Source of the DNA: Paramecium tetraurelia
Taxonomy: Eukaryota
DNA length: 20,000 bases
Assembly: GCA_000165425.1 (NCBI GenBank)
Contig: CT868022.1
Coordinates: forward strand, 242,694-262,693
Reading direction: 5' to 3'
The notes beneath the pieces are model-generated. The model searched no databases and was not told the DNA's origin. It saw nothing but the letters and a program-made list of their open reading frames with translations. Position 1 is the stretch's first letter, and each line of letters starts with the position of its first letter. Positions 3,181 through 18,932 of the stretch are shown one piece after another. The position numbers were made by a program, and so were the translations under genes.

Positions 3181-4151
3181 TCATTTCTTAGATCTTATCC
3201 AAAGTGTTGTTCCTAACACTATAAATATTGAAACTTCAGAAAATAAGAAATGACAGTAAGTTTCGATGAATCTAATTATTATAATTAGTTAATACTGCTC
3301 TTGGTAGCATAAGTAAAAAAAGAAACAAAGAAGGCAAAATTAACTCATGAGTACAACGAACATGATCCACTTCTAATTTATGATTCTTTTAAATGTCTCA
3401 TTTCCATTACTATAATATTTTGAGCATTCTAAGTTCAGTTTTGATATTTGGTATAGTTCATTTATACCCAAATAGAGGAATAATAGGCTGCCATTAAATA
3501 AAATGAGTCTAAATATTGTTATTGTAATAATTACTTCACAAATATTAGTACTACAGTCATAAAACTTTCAAGTAATCTTAGTGAATAAACAATATTTAAT
3601 AACATAAAGATTAATAAGGAGATCTTCATCATAATGTTTGCAGAGCACATCAATTTGTTGTGTTCTTTGTAATTTTGCGAACATATCCAACAAAACTCAT
3701 ATTAACATTTACATGTCATATGATTACATCCCCCATTTTTAAAAATTCTTCTTTGGCATTTCGGACAATCCTTTATAGTGATAAAATTCAAAAATATGCT
3801 TCTTAAATTCCAATTCTCATCTTTTAACTTGAATTGATATCCGCATTCACACTCAAATTACTAGCAATTATTCTTTATTATTCCACCATATTAGCAATCA
3901 TTTCGAGGACATATTCTTATATCCTAAGTAGTTTTAATGTATTTCTCAAGCATGAGATCATTTAATCCCTCCATGTTTTGCATCAATCCTTATACTGAGT
4001 GTTTGCTTTGGCAAGAACCGGGACAATGAATTTCCTCAATCACTTCATAATACTTTGCATCAATTGATTTAAGCATACAGCATTAACAGATTTGACAACT
4101 GCATTGCAATTCCAAAAGTTCTGTCGTATCACAACAAATAGAGCATTCCAT
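3181..4151 (-). CDS. RBR-family (RING1-IBR-Rcat) E3 ubiquitin ligase with C-terminal transmembrane helices, ~306-314 aa
   Basis: ATG at 4151. RING1-like CSICC...CSCQICQCC...CPGSC; IBR-like CPRNDC...CQQFECECGYQF; Rcat [29 protein letters not shown]...H...C with the catalytic GGCNHM motif. About four hydrophobic segments follow. Intron 3509-3534 (26 nt) is required; a possible in-frame 24-nt intron lies at 3272-3295. TGA at 3183-3181. Confidence 0.92.
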
Positions 4152-4496: not shown

Positions 4497-7400
4497 ATGA
4501 AATAATTCTCTAAAATGTTAAAGCCTCATGATTTAATTAATCTTTAGAATATAGATTCAAATTTTCAGAAATACTAATTAGTTAGAAATTGTTTTAGATT
4601 GAACATTAATAAGAGTCATTTTGATTAACTACAATAAATCTTAGGATAAACATAGGAATTATTGAATTCTTCTGACTTAGGATTAAAGAATCATCTTCGA
4701 GGAGGAGGCTGTTTAGTTTGCAAGTGCTAAAATACAAATATTAAATATTAATATCCTTCTCATTCCCATTCGTAATATATTACTTAGGTGAATGAACCTA
4801 AAAAGATTTTGGAAGTTAAAGAAATCAAAAAGAAATTAATCGAACATTTCAATTAGAATTCCTAGTTCAAATAATTCATATCAGCGGTAACAAATTGTGA
4901 TGATGATTGTGTCATTTTTACATATTAAACAATATCGATTTATCTTGAAATGTTGTAGAAACAGGAATTTCTCAAAATAGAAAAAAATCAACTCTTTCCA
5001 ATTTATGAATCTATTTAATAAATATCTTAGGATACAGAATGGAAAAAAATAATGTTTTAATTTTATTTCGACTTGTTACAATAAGCAAATGAATTTGGAA
5101 CAAAATCTAATGATCAAATATATGGGCTACTAAGTGACTTCAGTAAATAGGAATAATACACTTAAAACTAATGGGATTAATTAAAAAAGCAAAAAGACAA
5201 GTTTAGCTCTTATGAAACTTTTTATTTTTATTAAGCATACCTGAATAAATTAATCTAGCCTAATAATTTTGGAATTTCGTTGGATACTTTTGCTAATGAT
5301 TTTATTAATAATTAAGATTAAAAGAAATAGATAAATAGCTATCAACTTTTGATAGCAGCATAACTTAATTTGATGTATATATTTAATTTAACAAAATAAA
5401 ATTAGTAGTTAAACAACTTTATAAAAACAGTTTATGAAGTAAAATAGATAATTACAAAAGATGATGAATACTTTGTCAATTCGATCATAAAATAATAAGA
5501 CAAAGGTTATGAAGAAATTTAGATTTGGTTATCATATCACTTTCTCATTCTAGAACATACTTCCATCCTTAATAAGAGTATTTAAGACCATATTACACAA
5601 TTTTTTGAGATTTTGAAAATATATAAAGATAAGGATTTTTTGGAGTAATTGAATTGTATGAAAAATAGATTGGATTAAAAAAATAATTAATTATAAGTAA
5701 TTAATCCACTTGTAAATATAGTTAATGATGGTTTTAAATAGTAATTGAATTATAAAGATTAATTGGATATTGTACGCGAAAAAAAAAAAGACCAAAAATA
5801 CTAGTAGAAATAATATTATATAACTCCTTAAATTAATATCACAACATCTACATCTAAATTAGAGTCAACTTTTGATGAAGAAGTAATAAAAAATCTGTTT
5901 GAAGCATAGGAAGAAGATATATATTGGTTGTTTGGGAAATTTAAGTCTGGTAAAACAGATTTAACAAAGAAAATAATAGACTATTTATGGAAAAATTCTG
6001 ATTAGATCCCAATTTATTTCGATTTAACTGATATAGAATAAAATAAAGAGAAACCAGCTGAATTTTTAAAAACATCTCTAAAATCTGAACCATTTAACCT
6101 TACAGATTAGTAGATTTAAGATTGTTTAAACGCAAATGAAAAATTCGTCATCTTTTTAGATTATTTCGATTAAATGAGCTTAGGGTTTAGAAATAGTAAT
6201 ATCATTAACATGCTTGGCTATAAAGATAAGAAGATAAATTAAAAATTGGTTATAATTACTAGAGAATAGGTGTAAGACCTGCCATCATATCAGCCCTTAA
6301 TTTAAAGAATGATTCGAATTGAATTAAAAGAATTTGATGAAGGGTAAAAGAGAAAATATATTTAATATATCATGAATAAGGAAATTTAAAGCAATTAGAT
6401 TAACATTAATGTTTAGTAAATGATTAGTATCAATTTTAATGATGTCTAAATTTTAATCCAGGAAGACCATGTTAGACAGATTAAGATGTAATTAACTCAG
6501 GAGAATTAATAATCCATTTAAAAAATGGTGCAAAATATGTTATAATTAAACTCTATGATGAAGGACTTATTTGTATCTTGTTTTTCCTTTCATTATCAGT
6601 TCAAATTGCTGCTTAAATTAATTACTTAAAAGAACTCTGAAAAATCTCCTTAAAGATTCTAAGAATATAATAAATCCAAAAATTTAGTTGCTCAGTATCA
6701 AGAATAACAGAAAAAATAATTTAAATAACTATTAGATAGTAATAGTAATTCCTCATCCGACACAAATTCACCCTCTTCCAAAAATGAAGAACCAATTGGG
6801 ATTAATAAAATTTTAGATTCTATACTGACAAAAAGCAATCAGAAATATAGACCTTAATAAGAAGACATTTAAAAAAAATAGATTTTAAATCCTTAACTTA
6901 CAAAATTTGAATATTTTAATTCTCTTGTTGACTAATATATCTAAGATTCTTTTGAAGCAAGGGAATGTATTTGTTCAACTTATAAAATAACTAAAAAAAA
7001 AGTAAGAGAGTTTTAATCTAATCTGGCATTACTAATTTAATAAAAAGGAAATAACGATTAAGAGTCTTAAAACGAATTAATAAAAATATTTTGTCTATTA
7101 AAGTCAGATGGAGAAAAGGAAATATTCATCGACGAAAAATTCAAAGATTTTTTTATTGCAAATTTCGTATTAAGTAAAATTAATCAATTTACAATTGATA
7201 AGTCAATAGAGGAACTTGGTCAATTTAATAATTTGAATTTATGCCAAAACGCTTATGCTGAAGCAGTAGCTTTACTTTCAGATTAACTCTTATTAATATC
7301 TGAAATTAAGAATGTTCTTATTTAATTAATCAAATTATCAAAAAATTAAACTAAATACATAAGATGTTCATCTAATAGTATGTATCTTTTATCAATTCTT

Positions 7401-10400
7401 AAACTAAATTTAGAAGGAGAAGATTTAAGTTAAATCCAAATATCTGAAATACCTATATCAGGATTGAGCTTTTATTATGCAAATTTATGTAATTCACATT
7501 GGGAAAATGTTGATTTAAGTTATTGCAATTTCAATTCAGCAAACTTAACAGGTGCAAAATTGGAAAGTATAAAAGGAATTCTTTAAACACAAACAGACAG
7601 ATAGATTTAGATAAAGTAAAAGGAAGAGAGTAAAATCATCGGAGTTTTAGATCAGAAAAAAAATATATAGTCAAAAGAAAGTCAACATAAGAAAAATTAA
7701 TTAGATTCATTTGATTATCATAGCATTTAAGCAAATGAATCGCAAGTTGAAAATTCATCCAAAAAAAATCATTCAATCTAAAATGATTTATATTCAAACA
7801 TTTCTATTAAAGAAGATAATACGAATAAAATTATATATCAAAAATGCTTTAAGTAACATTGTAGCTCATTTTGTTTTTTAGCATTAAAAGATTAGGTAGT
7901 CTGTGCATTATCAAAGGATAGGATTAAATATAAGATAAATTTTTTGTTTTATAAAAAATAAAATGAGATCGAACCTATAGAAATAGAACACTAATTTGAT
8001 AAAATTACTAAAATGGCTACTTATAAAAATGATTAAATTTTAGTTTTATTAATTAATAACAATAAAATCCTTTTGATTTGGCTTAAGAGAAATTAAGATC
8101 ATTCATACAAACTAGATATTGAAAATAAAACAGAAATCAATGCTGATAATTTTACCATATCAAATTGCAAAATGTTTTTGGCGGCACACAACTGCAATGA
8201 AGTGAAAATCTATGATTAGAAATTGATTGAGGTTTATAAATTTTCATCCGTAAATGATTGGTGGAGATAAATATAATATAAGAGCAAACAAGTCATATTT
8301 GAAAAACCTTAACCAATCAATATTTTTGATTCATAAGTTGAAAATGCTCAATATTCTCCTGATGGATAAAACGTCGTTATATAATTCAAAAGCAAAACAG
8401 AATTTTATAGCATCAAAAATGATGCAGCCGTTTTAGAAATGGAGAAGGTGAATAATTTGATTTTCTCAAAAAATTATTTTGCTACAAGTTCTAATTAAGG
8501 TATTAAAATATATAGCTTTCCAGAATGTGAACTTCTCGATTGGCTACCTTTCAAAGCAAAATTATTAATATTCTCTTATAAATAAGAATAGAAATTGGCA
8601 ATTATAAGTGATTGCAATTTTATTCTTGATTTGAAAGATTTAGAATAAACCTCTCCAAAAATAATTAGGAATTTCAATTAATAAATTTAAGATTCCCCAC
8701 TTATAATTGCTGTTTCAACAAATAAGACATATAAGACAATGGCATAAAATGGATTAATTCATTTTATTGACGATTAGTTTTAAAATGAAAAAAAATAATA
8801 GTATTAAGATGAAACGATTTTATCAATGGGCTTTTTTAAAGATAATATTCATTTAGCTGTTAGAAGCAAAAAGAACAATTAACATATCTTTAGAATGATT
8901 AATTTTAGCACTTAAAAAACCACTTTAGAATGGAAAGAAGATAATTAAACTGAAGATACAGAGTTTTCTAATTAATTCTAATATTTACTGATTGAATAAA
9001 GAATATATGTAATTTCTAATCAAAATAATCGATTAGTCTTTTAAGATGTGACTCAATGGTGTTTAGATTAACGATAAAATGAGAATAATGAGAGAGACAA
9101 ACCTCCAATTATATTAGAACTAACTCATTAAAATAATGAAATATTGTTGGATAAGAGTTAAAAATAAACAATGAATATGGCTTAATTAAATTCAGATATG
9201 CCTGATGAATAATTTTTCTGTTTTAACTTTTCAATTTCTTAAGACCAAACTTATATTGCAGCATGTTTTTCTTAAAAAAAAAATTAATTTAAAAAAAATG
9301 GTTCTACTATCATTATTTGGAAATATATTGATAAATCACCACATGACTATAAATTTGAATTTGACTTTTCTCATGATGCGGGGGTAAATTTATATTTCTT
9401 GGAATACGAAAATCTATTACTTTTGATTTTCAAGTTCAATGAATAATAATGTATTCAACTCGTTTCTATCCAAAATAAAAATAAAACTAGTCTTTGTCTC
9501 AAAACGTCTGACTAACCTATCTAATCTATAGCATTTTCTTCATAGCAACAATAATTTTTTGCTATCCATTCAAATAAGAGCTTTTCTCTTTATGAAATAA
9601 TAAACGAGTAAATAGAATTGAAATATTATTTTAAAGAAACTGAGATACCAATTTATTTTAGTTAAACTGGAACTCATGTAATTTACGCTTTTTAGTAAAG
9701 TATTATTATAAGAAATGTTGATGGTATTCTTGAAAGAATCAAAAATTTCTATTTAAATGGAATAAAATAGCAGATTGATTAAAATGAGGGTATTTGTTTT
9801 TCAGATAATATCACTTATTTGAATCATGAAAATTAAATGATTTATTAATATTCTCAAGATCAATGTCAAAAAATCTCTTTGGGTCATTCATTTATCTCTA
9901 TTAATTGTTCATAATTTTCTTAGGATGAGAACATTTTAATAATTATCTCTGCAAAAGAAAGAGATAAATAATTCTTAAGAATTCTTTTTAAGACTGAAAA
10001 TAACTATAGTTAATAACAAAAAGAATCTGATTTTGATTAAGTTGTTTATTCCTGTAAATTTCTAACAATTAGTTCGTTTATACTTATCTTAAAAGATATC
10101 CTGATTTATGAAATTTCTGATTTTGCAACCAGTGTCAAATAATTAATAAGTTTGCCTAATTTTTTTTACGAGCCATAATAATCGATAGAAACTATAAATG
10201 TTCATCCAAACAGAAAGGATTTTCTCGCAATCACTAAAAGTGGTTAAATATAAATTTATAAGTTGACTCAGGATAAAGAATATAAGTATAAGTTATATAA
10301 AACACTCCCAAGAAATTTATAAGCTAAAGATTGTGTTATATCTAAATTAAATGCTAGCGATTCCATCATAGAACAATTGAAATATTTAGGAGCAATATAT

Positions 10401-10424
10401 GATGAGAAAGATAATTGTAATTGA
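4497..10424 (+). CDS. NACHT (STAND NTPase) - pentapeptide repeat - degenerate WD40/beta-propeller protein (NLR-like), ~1975 aa, intronless
   Basis: One TGA-free frame of 5928 nt in table 6. Walker A WLFGKFKSGKT (G at 5934), Walker B FVIFLDYFDQ (6144-6173), sensor KLVIITR, IELKEFDEGQKRKYI, winged-helix-like FIDEKFKDFFIA (7125-7160), pentapeptide block NLEGEDLSQIQISEIPISGLSFYYANLCNSHWENVDLSYCNFNSANLTGAKL (~7405-7565), then propeller-like blades (AQYSPDGQNVVI, FSISQDQTYIAA, IAFSSQQQQFFAI) and a C-terminal LQAKDCVI...LKYLGAI. The start is the first in-frame ATG; the frame stays open upstream. Confidence 0.9.
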
Positions 10425-11355: not shown

Positions 11356-13369
11356 ATGATCGTATTGATGATTTCATTGATGCAATATGCATTAGCATAT
11401 GAACTTGATGTAAATACATTCTCAAATTATCTGGATGTCTAAAATAGGCATTTGCATTTAGAATGGTTATTAAATATGGACAAAAAATATATCAATTCTA
11501 CATCATCATACAGATTTTAAGTTGTGGGTCGTTCAATTAATAAAGTATGAAATTTGATGTATCATAGATAACATTGGATATCTATAAGTTAAATATTTAT
11601 TCAACCTATCTTTAAAATGGACTGTCACTTTCACACACAATAGACAACCCATATGAGGACTCTGATCAAGGATCGCGACTGAATATTCAATTAGATAAGA
11701 CATATTACAAAGGATAATATATAGAATTATCTATAAAATACTCTATCGATTCAAAATCTAGATCGATTAGTTTTATGACAAAAGAGTAAACCTCAACAAA
11801 AAGTAACATCAACTACAATAATTATAGCAATGCCCTACATATTTTCATAATGTGAAGATGCAAATTGCAGAGCTTTGGCTCCTTTGTAAGACACTCCTAC
11901 AGTCAAATAGACTTACACTGCAACTGTGATATTTAAAGATACAGAAGCAGCAGATGTATTTATGTCAGCGGATGAAAGCAAAGAAGAATTCCAAGTGCTT
12001 TATAGACCCAAAGATTAAGCTGGTTTCACATGGAAATATAAATATTTTATTCAAAAAGTTCCAATACCTAGTTATCTGATTGCAATAGTTGCAGGTAATA
12101 TCAAGAAAGTGCCTACAAGTACTGGAGGTAGAACATTTTTAGTTAGTGAGCCTGATAAAACAGAGGCATACACTGCTGAACTTAAAGATATGGAATAATT
12201 CATGTAGGCCATAGAACAATATATTGGTCCATACACTTGGGGAACCTACACTTTAGTAATATAGCCTGCTTCCTTTCCTATTGGAGGAATGGAAAATCCT
12301 CTTTTAACCTTTGCTAACCCTACAATTATGACAGGTACTGGGAGCGGATTAGATGTAACTATTCATGAAATGGCTCATTCATGGTTTGGTAACACCATAA
12401 CATGTGTTAATTGGGCTAATATGTGGATAAATGAGGGATTTACAGTGTTCCTTGAAAGGAAAGCATCCTTATTCCATTATCAGATTCCTGATGAAATCAA
12501 ATTAAATGCCATAATTGGAAATACATCCATGTACTAGGACATGCTTGGCTTTGGGCTTGATAGTAACTTCTCATCACTTCATCCTGATACTACCGGACTT
12601 AATCCAGACGATTCATTCAGCAAAATCCCTTATGAAAAAGGATACTAGTTTCTAGCTTATTTGGAATCCATAGTTGGAGAAGCTGATTTTAAATAGATGC
12701 TTAGAGCATATTTGGTTTAATACAAATATTAATCGATTGATCAACAGGAATTCCAAAACTTTTTACTGAGATACTTATATGAGAAATAAGTAGATGATTT
12801 TTCAACTAAGAGATACAAAATCTTAGAAAATTGGAACAAATGGGTTTATTCTCCAGGATTGCCTCCTGTGATTCTAGATTTTTCAACTCCAAAATTAGCT
12901 GAGGCTTATGATTACACTACTGCTTACATCACTGCTGATGGCTAATAGCCTACTAAATGGTAAAATTATTTTACTTTCTTGCATTCCTAAAAATAAGTTT
13001 TCTTAGAAGATCTCTTTAAATAAGCTTAGAATAATTTATTGAAAATAAATGTTATCAATTAAATGGATAAGGATTTAAAATTAACAGAAGAGAAAGACTT
13101 TGAGTTGAAATTTAGATGGTTCAGAGCAATTTTGACAGCAGGTGACAAAACTAGATTTACTTAAATTTCAGACTTTTTAGGATCTGTTGGAAGAGGCAAG
13201 ATGGTCTATCCAGTCTATAGAGCTTTAAATTAATTGGATCAGTATTTATTATCATTATCTTAGTGATTTTGCTGTAAAAACATTCAAAAATCATGAAGCA
13301 TTCTATCATCCGATTGCAAAAAATAATATAAAGAATATCCTTGGATTGAAAGAGAACATTATTTAATGA
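11356..13369 (+). CDS. M1-family zinc aminopeptidase, leukotriene A4 hydrolase-like, with predicted signal peptide, ~647 aa
   Basis: Motifs DVNTFSNY, YIFSQCEDANCRALAPLQDTP, PIPSYLIAIVAG, GGMEN (12283-12297), HEMAH (12364-12378) x18 NEG, IPYEKG, and LTA4H-type C-terminus VGRGKMVYPVY...FYHPIA. Introns 11545-11567 (23 nt), 11803-11827 (25), 13242-13263 (22). TGA at 13367-13369. Confidence 0.95.
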
Positions 13370-16682: not shown

Positions 16683-18932
16683 TCAAATTTCTTTATATTT
16701 TCTGATTTTTAATTCACTGCTATGACTATCATATGTTACTAAGTAAGTCCCATCATTTGATATACTTCCAAATAATCCACAACAATCACACATATTTTCA
16801 AATTCTTATATTGTTTGAAATTCTCCATTTTCTTTATGTTTAATGATATTTACATAACATCCATTCTTATTTAGTAGGACTAATTTGTCTTTAATATATT
16901 TTTAAGGGAATAACTCACTACAATTTGCACCTGATTTAATACTTACGTCTTGTTTGCTTTTTATAAATTATTTGCTTGATTAATCATATTCATAAATATG
17001 CATTATATTCAAGGATTCAGGTTAGAATGTAAATTTAGTATTTGATATAAAACATAAACTAAATCCATACCTTTCAACCTGTATTTTTTAGATTGTACTC
17101 CATTATTTATTGTTATTTTGTTATATGATTAATAACAATTTATCTGTTCCACATGATATTAATTAATTTTATGACAAATTCAATGCTAAACATCTGACCT
17201 TTTCAGTATGATCCGACAATGTCTATCTGCACTTCCACTATTAATTTTCTTAAATCCAAAATTTGATTGTCTTATCTGTACTACCAGAAATTATACAATC
17301 CTCTTAGTTATTTGTGATTAAACAATTAATTTTATCAGTATGACCTTCTAATTTTTATAAAACTTTCCATTACTTCTTATTATCCATACTCCATATTATA
17401 ATGAACTTATCATCACTGCAAGAAATAAATTAAGAACTATTCTACATAAAAAATAAAGAGTTAATCTAATCCTTATGCTCTTTAAATTATTAGATCTCTT
17501 TCGCTATTCCAGAATTAAAATCATATACTTTGATATTTCCACTACTTTAACCCACAATCATCATAGATAGTTCTTTATTAAATATTATTGATCTGCATTT
17601 AGTATTTTCTTTCAATTAAGAAATCAGTTCATAAGTAAATGATTTTTTAGTTTATGGTAGAGCTACTTACTCATTACAATTAACCTAAAGACTGACAACT
17701 GCTTATGTTATTGATAATTAATATTGAATTTGTGTTTCAGCATCAACCTTATTGATCTGATTTTTAACATCTTGAATAACTGGCTTTGAAACCAATTAAG
17801 AAAAACTAGAATTAATTAGATTCTAGAACTACATCATTTGTGAACTAATCAATTATTCAATAGCTGATTCTTTGGATTAAAATTCTTTTTCTAAGGTTTA
17901 ATTAAAAATAACGATTCTATTTTATTGACTAAGCAGATTCGCAATTCTTATGAGTTCTTCTTTGCTTAATTGATACCAAGCTTTTTAAATTAATTAATGA
18001 TGCTATTCAAGTTCATCATTTCCTTGTGAGGCTTTTTCTTAAATAGATTATATTAATTGGTCAAATTATTAAATCATAACGTCTTTTGATTCCTTCAATT
18101 AATGAATTACTTATTATTGTTTTTTTTAAGTATTACTTATATATATATTAAAAAGAGCCAAGACTTATTCATTATAACTTTTCCAAAGTTCTTGCATTTA
18201 ATCTAAATCAGTATATTGAATAACATATTCAGGAACACATTTTAAGCAAGCCACTCTACTTGGAATGCTCTTTTATGATTATAAATCAACAAAAGCTATC
18301 TAAAGTTAATGTTTTTCACAAATCCAATTAGCAGTTTATTCTTGATTGTAATTTGTCAATAGCCCAAAATCAAAAAATTGGTTTATGATCTCATTCTGTT
18401 CAAAACCTTCAATCCTTTAGATTAATTGATCAAACTTTGATTTACATATGCTTGCAAATAAGTTCCCTATTTGGGTAATAAATGATTATTATAATTCTCT
18501 ATAATTCACTTATTATTTTATGATTGTACTTTTATCTTGGTTGATAAGTTCTATTTGATCAAACTAAATATCATTTATCATCTTCTGAAATTATTAAGAG
18601 GATTATTCAATAAATTGAATTTCTGAATCAATATTTTGGTTGATTTTGTCAATTAAAACATTGATGTTTTTGCAAAGAGTTAAAAGCTGTTCCTTTAGAT
18701 CATTTAATATGCCAATGTTCTACAAATTAATGGATTCTCCTTATTACAAAACTGCAGACTTTGTTTCCTCAAACTATTTTTTTGCATCATCTATCAAAAT
18801 TAAACTCTTTTATTAATCGACTACACATTTATGACAAAGTTTCAGTGCTTTTTATTAAGATTCTGATTTTGTTAAAAATACCGCAACTTCCTTGTGATCT
18901 AAACATTACGCAAAATCATGTAATTTTTGCAT
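16683..18932 (-). CDS. WD40-repeat protein with two N-terminal CxxH-x19/20-CxxC zinc-finger + coiled-coil modules, 749 aa, intronless
   Basis: ATG at 18932, TGA at 16685-16683, 2250 nt open in table 6. Clear WD repeats from ~17640 down: EHKDQINSLFFMQNSSQFISCSDDKFIIIW, LEGHTDKINCLITNNQEDCIISGSTDKTIKFW, LSDHTEKVRCLALNLSQNQLISCGTDK; ends FGSISNDGTYLVTYDSHSSELKIRKYKEI. Confidence 0.93.

Follow-up and report, generated by a model that had tools for sequence, protein, structure and literature searches.

Can the four residues that end ubiquitin, when set inside a much larger protein, mark a place where the chain is cut and a lipid anchor exposed? The question is raised by a gene in a 20,000-nucleotide stretch of Paramecium tetraurelia DNA (GenBank assembly GCA_000165425.1, contig CT868022.1, positions 242,694 to 262,693 of the forward strand; hereafter, the window). 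Its product, a 1975-residue protein resembling STAND/NLR-type ATPases, opens with a 70-residue leader that ends in Leu-Arg-Gly-Gly and is followed at once by Gly-Cys. LRGG is also the C terminus of ubiquitin, NEDD8 and ISG15. The original prediction, made from the DNA letters, took the junction for a deubiquitinase-gated switch in which cleavage after LRGG would free a glycine for N-myristoylation. Our analysis finds that the conserved motif at this junction is well supported, and the mechanism that we infer from the protein sequences is attractive as a hypothesis.

The LRGG–GC junction and its conservation

The first 77 residues of the protein end in LGLKNHLRGG-GCLVCKC, residues 64-77 being KNHLRGG/GCLVCKC (the slash marks the proposed cut), and both the letters and the coordinates originally assigned to the motif (LRGG at 4695-4706, GCLVCKC at 4707-4727) proved exact in the sequence and its table 6 translation. 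The elements of this part of the gene are as follows.

4497..10424, + strand: single-exon open reading frame of 1975 aa, ciliate code (NCBI table 6), identical to the database model P0002 from M7 on
4497..4706, + strand: leader of 70 aa ending in LRGG, of invariant length in the alignment; no Pfam or Protein Data Bank (PDB) match, helical at low confidence in an AlphaFold2 model
4686..4709, + strand: short linear motif K64-N65-x-L67-R68-G69-G70-G71, 7/8 columns invariant
4695..4706, + strand: LRGG (aa 67-70), codons CTT CGA GGA GGA, from sequence and translation
4707..4727, + strand: G71-C-L-V-C-K-C77, codons GGC TGT TTA GTT TGC AAG TGC, with Cys at +1, +4 and +6; fits the myristoylation pattern
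4710..4808, + strand: variable linker (aa 72-104), 2/33 columns invariant, 21 gap columns

The window is AT-rich, with 21-34% GC per kilobase and a local 1-kb background of 22-25% near the motif. The GC-rich island noticed earlier at the junction is present, the 18 nt at 4695-4712 having 61% GC against 6-33% in neighbouring 18-nt segments, and is simply made of Arg and Gly codons.

The open reading frame contains 173 TAA or TAG codons, read as Gln under the ciliate nuclear code. Between its ATG at 4497 and an upstream in-frame TGA at 4065 there is no other ATG in frame. The one that follows is codon 7 (4515), where P0002, the public model of the same gene (1969 aa), begins; the aligned starts of all three homologues coincide with M1, unlike that of P0002. 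After codon 7 the next ATG is codon 152 (4950), past a stretch whose protein sequence is conserved, so that no plausible start lies just 3′ of the motif, as the original reading of the junction presupposes. An intron-like 26-nt GTA...TAG at 4955 is not an intron, because splicing it would break the frame that aligns with the homologues.

Relatives were sought in word-indexed searches with aa 1-500 and aa 440-1040, with a profile of the leader run against longer proteins, and in an exhaustive phmmer search with aa 1-450 against 1.84 billion representatives. These returned P0003 from Paramecium octaurelia (1970 aa, 62-63% identity to the window protein) and P0004 from P. primaurelia (1979 aa, 41-46% identity), to which we added P0006 from P. 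pentaurelia, a member of P0004's cluster and 87% identical to it. No family member beyond P0002 (the protein's own entry), P0003 and P0004 was found by any of the three routes, the word-indexed searches counting as weak evidence of absence since they scored only the roughly 8000 candidates with the most words in common. P0005, returned with aa 440-1040, is an unrelated pentapeptide protein.

Invariance was counted over the 2091 columns of a full-length three-way alignment of the window protein, P0003 and P0004, with P0006 judged by eye. In all four proteins the leader is exactly 70 residues long and free of gaps, with R68 at the same position, and the junctions read KNHLRGG/GCLVCK in the window protein, KNSLRGG/GCACCN in P0003 and KNQLRGG/GICNSK in both P0004 and P0006. 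The motif is therefore kept by every relative found, as LRGGGC in P. octaurelia and as LRGGGIC in P. primaurelia and P. pentaurelia. Seven of the eight columns of KNxLRGGG are invariant and none is gapped, and it is one of 13 blocks in the alignment with at least 7 of 8 columns invariant, the Walker A loop GKxKSGKT being another. Its surroundings form the least conserved part of the protein: the leader body (aa 1-63) has invariant residues at 9 of 63 columns, again with 0 gap columns, and is 22-24% identical to the P0004 lineage, and leader and linker around the motif diverge to 22-31% identity. As judged from this alignment, KNxLRGGG has the profile of a strongly constrained short linear motif within an otherwise drifting region.

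From amino acid composition, LRGGG would be expected 2e-5 to 3e-5 times per protein (2e-5 for the window protein). Because of this low expectation, and because the window protein, P0003 and P0004 share the position of R68 (P0006 has the same N terminus), the motif at residues 64-71 is, on these sequences, not a chance occurrence. The same figures bear on the idea of a neutral relic, for instance what is left of an ancient fusion to ubiquitin, without function today. The very small family and the minimal transcript evidence described below would suit a relic, but a neutral sequence would not keep 7 of 8 columns invariant with such low identity around it, and the chance expectation for LRGGG speaks against it too; we consider this explanation highly improbable.

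The motif was also sought outside the protein databases. A metagenome pattern scan for related loci gave 572 pattern matches and 0 relatives, and a degenerate DNA pattern for KNxLRGGGC hit 33 metagenome loci with 35-69% GC, against about 35 expected by chance on our own estimate; by eye, none of the 33 was family-like or AT-rich like ciliate DNA. The original prediction had supposed LRGGGC-like starts in other Paramecium NACHT-WD40 proteins, which the searches confirm only within this four-member family. One metagenome contig (L011, 35% GC) encodes, around 1501-1527 on the minus strand, NIKKNFLRGGGCKYL within an apparent leucine-rich-repeat protein; the same nine-residue pattern thus also occurs in an unrelated repeat context.

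A candidate maturation site and its alternatives

Only a cut after G70 would turn G71-C77 into a dual-acylation-type N terminus. We compared the residues after the double Gly with a PROSITE-type N-myristoylation pattern, G-{EDRKHPFYW}-x(2)-[STAGCN]-{P}, to which a Cys within two residues was added. The predicted fit extends to all four proteins (GCLVCK, GCACCN and twice GICNSK), where either +1 or +2 is a Cys. As a background, every Gly of three family members was taken: the pattern alone fits 5/37, 6/41 and 8/38 (13-21%), and the pattern with Cys fits 2/37, 3/41 and 2/38, G71 included. The first 20 residues from G71 (aa 71-90) hold no acidic residue in the window protein and P0003 and one in P0004 and P0006, with 2-5 Lys or Arg in the family, against a D+E content of 11-12% in the whole proteins. 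GCLVCK, GCACCN and GICNSK presumably resemble the SH4 dual-acylation starts of Src-family kinases and of G-alpha subunits.

The reading that we prefer takes KNxLRGG/G-C for a maturation site. The precursor would be cut after Gly70 by an L-x-G-G-specific cysteine protease, of the deubiquitinase/ULP type or another papain-like kind, setting free a 70-aa and probably helical propeptide; N-myristoyltransferase would then acylate the new N-terminal Gly71, and neighbouring Cys residues would be S-palmitoylated. The basic, acid-poor and length-variable linker would thereby tether a STAND-type ATPase to a membrane. We put this forward tentatively, its probability falling short of even. More broadly, these proteins could form a pro-protein family in which LRGG is clipped either by a host deubiquitinase-type enzyme or by a microbe's LxGG protease, unmasking a Src-like Gly-Cys signal that directs the protein to membranes; in this wider form we hold the proposal to be possible but rather doubtful. 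Each step is known, with precedents; the proposed combination, and its occurrence in a ciliate STAND protein, would be new. Keyword literature searches, which did not cover subscription journals, returned no account of LRGG/di-Gly or deubiquitinase processing by which an acylation motif is laid bare, and none of Paramecium NACHT-WD40 proteins or the present family.

Several observations weigh against the maturation site. The four proteins amount to about three lineages, so that the conservation counts are few and not independent, and a single Cys column is common to all family proteins. Transcript support is one read pair: among three oligo-dT RNA-seq runs, X21 gave 2 reads (that pair) and X19 and X20 gave 0. 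The pair spans 4619-4741 unspliced, with its first mate on the minus strand; it is compatible with an unspliced transcript through leader and motif and too little to place the transcript start.

The fold of the leader weighs on the same side. It gives no sign of a ubiquitin-like beta-grasp. Pfam gave 0 families at E<=10 for aa 1-110, and the PDB, which contains very many ubiquitin chains, gave no ubiquitin or ubiquitin-like (UBL) chain at E<=10 in a single-sequence phmmer search and two profile searches. An AlphaFold2 model of aa 1-90, built from a three-sequence alignment, has helices at 10-18, 22-36 and 42-68 and 0 strands, at low confidence (mean predicted local distance difference test score, pLDDT, 54.6, and <50 from residue 59 on), and Foldseek with this model found no match at E<=0.001. 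This fold evidence is weak, yet all of it points away from a beta-grasp, and the leader is not detectably ubiquitin-like, which weakens the deubiquitinase part of the idea. In SDE2 the cut requires the UBL to imitate ubiquitin in its contact with USP5, at two sites (PMC13572447); a helical leader would therefore need a different protease, one that reads the L-x-G-G tail alone.

Within the leader coding region, the window shows a T>C difference at 4592 with respect to a Logan contig of run X1, which may reflect the strain, the allele or an error.

In the principal rival no cleavage takes place, and the triple Gly serves as a flexible hinge that joins a small helical domain at the N terminus to the remainder of the chain. 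The helix runs up to residue 68 and gives way to disorder in the low-confidence model of aa 1-90, and the invariant leader length is what a folded unit would be expected to have. Such a hinge is possible, although we rate it as unlikely. It leaves unexplained why L67, R68 and exactly three Gly are invariant amid drifting surroundings, and why the myristoylation pattern fits after the second Gly in 4/4 proteins. The Cys-rich basic patch would in that case be internally S-palmitoylated, or would bind a metal or a partner, with LRGG kept for packing or binding, an extension that we find similarly hard to favour. Cys clusters beside basic residues can be acylated without a free N terminus (SNAP-25 and CSP types); a metal site is weak, with only one Cys conserved across lineages.

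Another arrangement would give the function to the released leader itself, as a small LRGG-ended modifier or peptide that is conjugated or signals like TUGUL, with the C-terminal product secondary. The strict length of 70 aa fits a defined product, and there is a parallel in TUG, whose N-terminal product has a diglycine end and is conjugated to KIF5B (PMC6747935). Against this, the leader body is the least conserved region of the protein, at 9/63 invariant columns and 22-24% identity to the P0004 lineage, and no UBL fold was detected by Pfam, AlphaFold2 or the PDB profile searches. We give this arrangement very little credence.

Autoprocessing at G-C of the Hedgehog or intein type was rejected, as no Hint domain was matched in Pfam and the P0004 lineage has an Ile between Gly and Cys. 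Readings as a bacterial double-glycine leader or as a leucine-rich repeat were set aside by eye, the upstream consensus positions being misfitting and not conserved.

Cleavage at the candidate maturation site could finally be provoked from outside. In a protease tripwire, the mimic of the ubiquitin tail would bait an LxGG or GG-X protease of a pathogen or symbiont (viral papain- or adenain-like enzymes, bacterial deubiquitinase effectors). The STAND-like architecture would suit this role, as would a family with only three relatives, each from another aurelia-complex species and 41-63% identical to the window protein, and constancy is what one would expect of a bait copying the invariant tail of ubiquitin. 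The outcome would be either lipidation and relocation of the STAND protein or exposure of a Gly N-degron, the latter being what NLRP1 exemplifies: it presents a Gly/N-degron peptide to CRL2-ZYG11B (bioRxiv 10.1101/2024.06.24.600508). NLRP1 thus resembles our proposal in that its N-terminal region is cut by a protease and a Gly neo-N-terminus decides the fate of the protein, according to that preprint. It differs in that the result is degradation and activation rather than lipidation, and the site is not LRGG. The bait itself we consider improbable, and either of its outcomes no less so. This pairing of host and protein has no known pathogen protease, nothing in the window ties the gene to infection, and a degron would need no acylation-type pattern after the cut; known tripwire sites evolve fast, unlike the LRGG site.

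The STAND-like ATPase and precedents for its proposed maturation

The rest of the protein is what the proposed maturation would bring to a membrane. The 1975-aa chain runs from the leader, motif and linker through a helical N-domain and a P-loop NTPase to pentapeptide repeats and a beta-propeller-like C terminus, and the elements beyond the linker are these.

4809..5846, + strand: N-terminal domain, aa 105-450, of no known family; predicted helical, the AlphaFold2 model of aa 1-450 being unusable (pLDDT 32.9)
5871..6173, + strand: P-loop NTPase core, with a sub-threshold NPHP3_N (NACHT-type) match at aa 459-528
5934..5957, + strand: Walker A, GKFKSGKT (aa 480-487), 7/8 invariant in the three aligned proteins
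6150..6173, + strand: Walker-B-like IFLDYFDQ (aa 552-559), six of eight invariant (I552, F553, D555, Y556, D558, Q559)
7413..7565, + strand: pentapeptide-repeat segment, aa 973-1023, Pfam PF00805 at 26.2 bits against a cut-off of 20.2, also matching pentapeptide designs in the PDB
7794..10424, + strand: C-terminal region of about 875 aa, WD40/beta-propeller-like by homology only

The label NACHT, under which the protein was first described, stands in part. The Walker A loop is conserved and NPHP3_N matches recur consistently, with 20.8 bits in the window protein, 21.6 in P0003 and 24.5 in P0004, all below the Pfam cut-off of 24.8; in P0003 NACHT itself scores 19.3 against a cut-off of 26.7, on the same region as NPHP3_N. 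UniRef names P0006 'Nephrocystin 3-like N-terminal domain-containing protein', and a PDB profile search matched no NLR structure. The C-terminal region of the window protein has no Pfam match, WD40-type matches being confined to the homologues (ANAPC4_WD40 at 25.6 bits against 22.9 in P0003; sub-threshold WD40-family matches in P0004). On these profile matches, 'STAND/NLR-like P-loop ATPase with repeat C-terminus' describes the protein fairly; that it belongs to NACHT in the strict sense is not proven.

Membrane anchoring of STAND/NACHT-type proteins is familiar from plant RPS5 and from nephrocystin-3, which are held by myristoylation of Gly2 with or without Cys palmitoylation; the best Pfam match of the P-loop region here is NPHP3_N. 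Both proteins differ from the window protein in that the Gly comes immediately after the initiator Met, with no leader in front of it to be taken off. Myristoylation after proteolysis is also familiar: caspase cleavage of BID, PAK2 and actin yields an N-terminal Gly that is acylated by N-myristoyltransferase, and the fragment moves to membranes. Caspases differ from the enzyme proposed here in cutting after Asp, and no ubiquitin-tail motif is involved.

The effector AvrPphB, which processes itself, is the closest match to the proposed chemistry. In AvrPphB-family type III effectors an N-terminal segment is removed, and the exposed internal Gly and then Cys become myristoylated and palmitoylated (PMC8150971). 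Unlike the window protein, AvrPphB is a bacterial effector acting in plant cells, with a non-LRGG site, and not a host STAND protein.

Two substrates of USP-type enzymes come closest to the cleavage. The N-terminal UBL of SDE2 is removed by USP5 (Ubp5/Ubp15 in fission yeast) to release a functional C-terminal protein; like the window protein, SDE2 has an N-terminal leader of about 70-80 aa ending in Gly-Gly, and cutting by a deubiquitinase gives it a defined new N terminus (PMC13572447). The leader of SDE2 is a genuine UBL, imitating ubiquitin on USP5, whereas no UBL fold is detectable here. The released SDE2 protein begins with Lys and is not known to be lipidated, unlike the product proposed for the window protein. 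In TUG (ASPSCR1), the USP-type enzyme Usp25m makes a regulated cut at an internal diglycine and thereby changes membrane tethering, as our proposal would also have it (PMC6747935). TUG differs from the window protein in having tandem UBL domains and an N-terminal product that serves as the modifier, and its cleavage unmasks no lipid anchor.

Were the site to be cut and its product acylated, three known steps would be joined in a new order, namely di-Gly processing, post-proteolytic myristoylation and NLR-type membrane anchoring, as a protease-gated lipid switch of a kind not known from any STAND or NLR protein. It would provide a testable ciliate example of a STAND ATPase recruited to membranes in a regulated way, and would mean that LRGG tails can guide a protease even where no ubiquitin fold is recognisable, a point that matters for how deubiquitinase-type enzymes choose substrates. 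If the site is uncut, KNxLRGGG is merely a conserved linear motif in a four-member, lineage-restricted family.

Neighbouring genes

The gene upstream is divergent (window 3435-4151, minus strand) and encodes a protein like E3 ubiquitin ligases of the IBR/RBR (RING-between-RING) type (Pfam IBR, E=1.9e-11), with a likely start MECSICCD at 4151, about 345 nt from the ATG of the LRGG gene, and a hydrophobic C-terminal tail. That a ubiquitin-system gene adjoins the LRGG gene may be coincidence.

A second WD40 protein of the window, of 749 aa, is encoded at 16683-18932 on the minus strand, with a propeller at aa 415-660 (Pfam WD40, 85.6 bits) and a Gln-rich, low-complexity N-terminal half that has no Pfam match. 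At 11830-13266 on the plus strand lies a gene resembling M1-family aminopeptidases and leukotriene-A4 hydrolase (Peptidase_M1, E=2.2e-38; Leuk-A4-hydro_C, E=8.3e-18), for which upstream exons are likely because the open reading frame starts inside the N-terminal domain. A further open reading frame at 2414-2998, also on the plus strand, ends in the C-terminal domain of 40S ribosomal protein S4 (E=1.8e-18) and is probably part of an intron-containing RPS4 gene.

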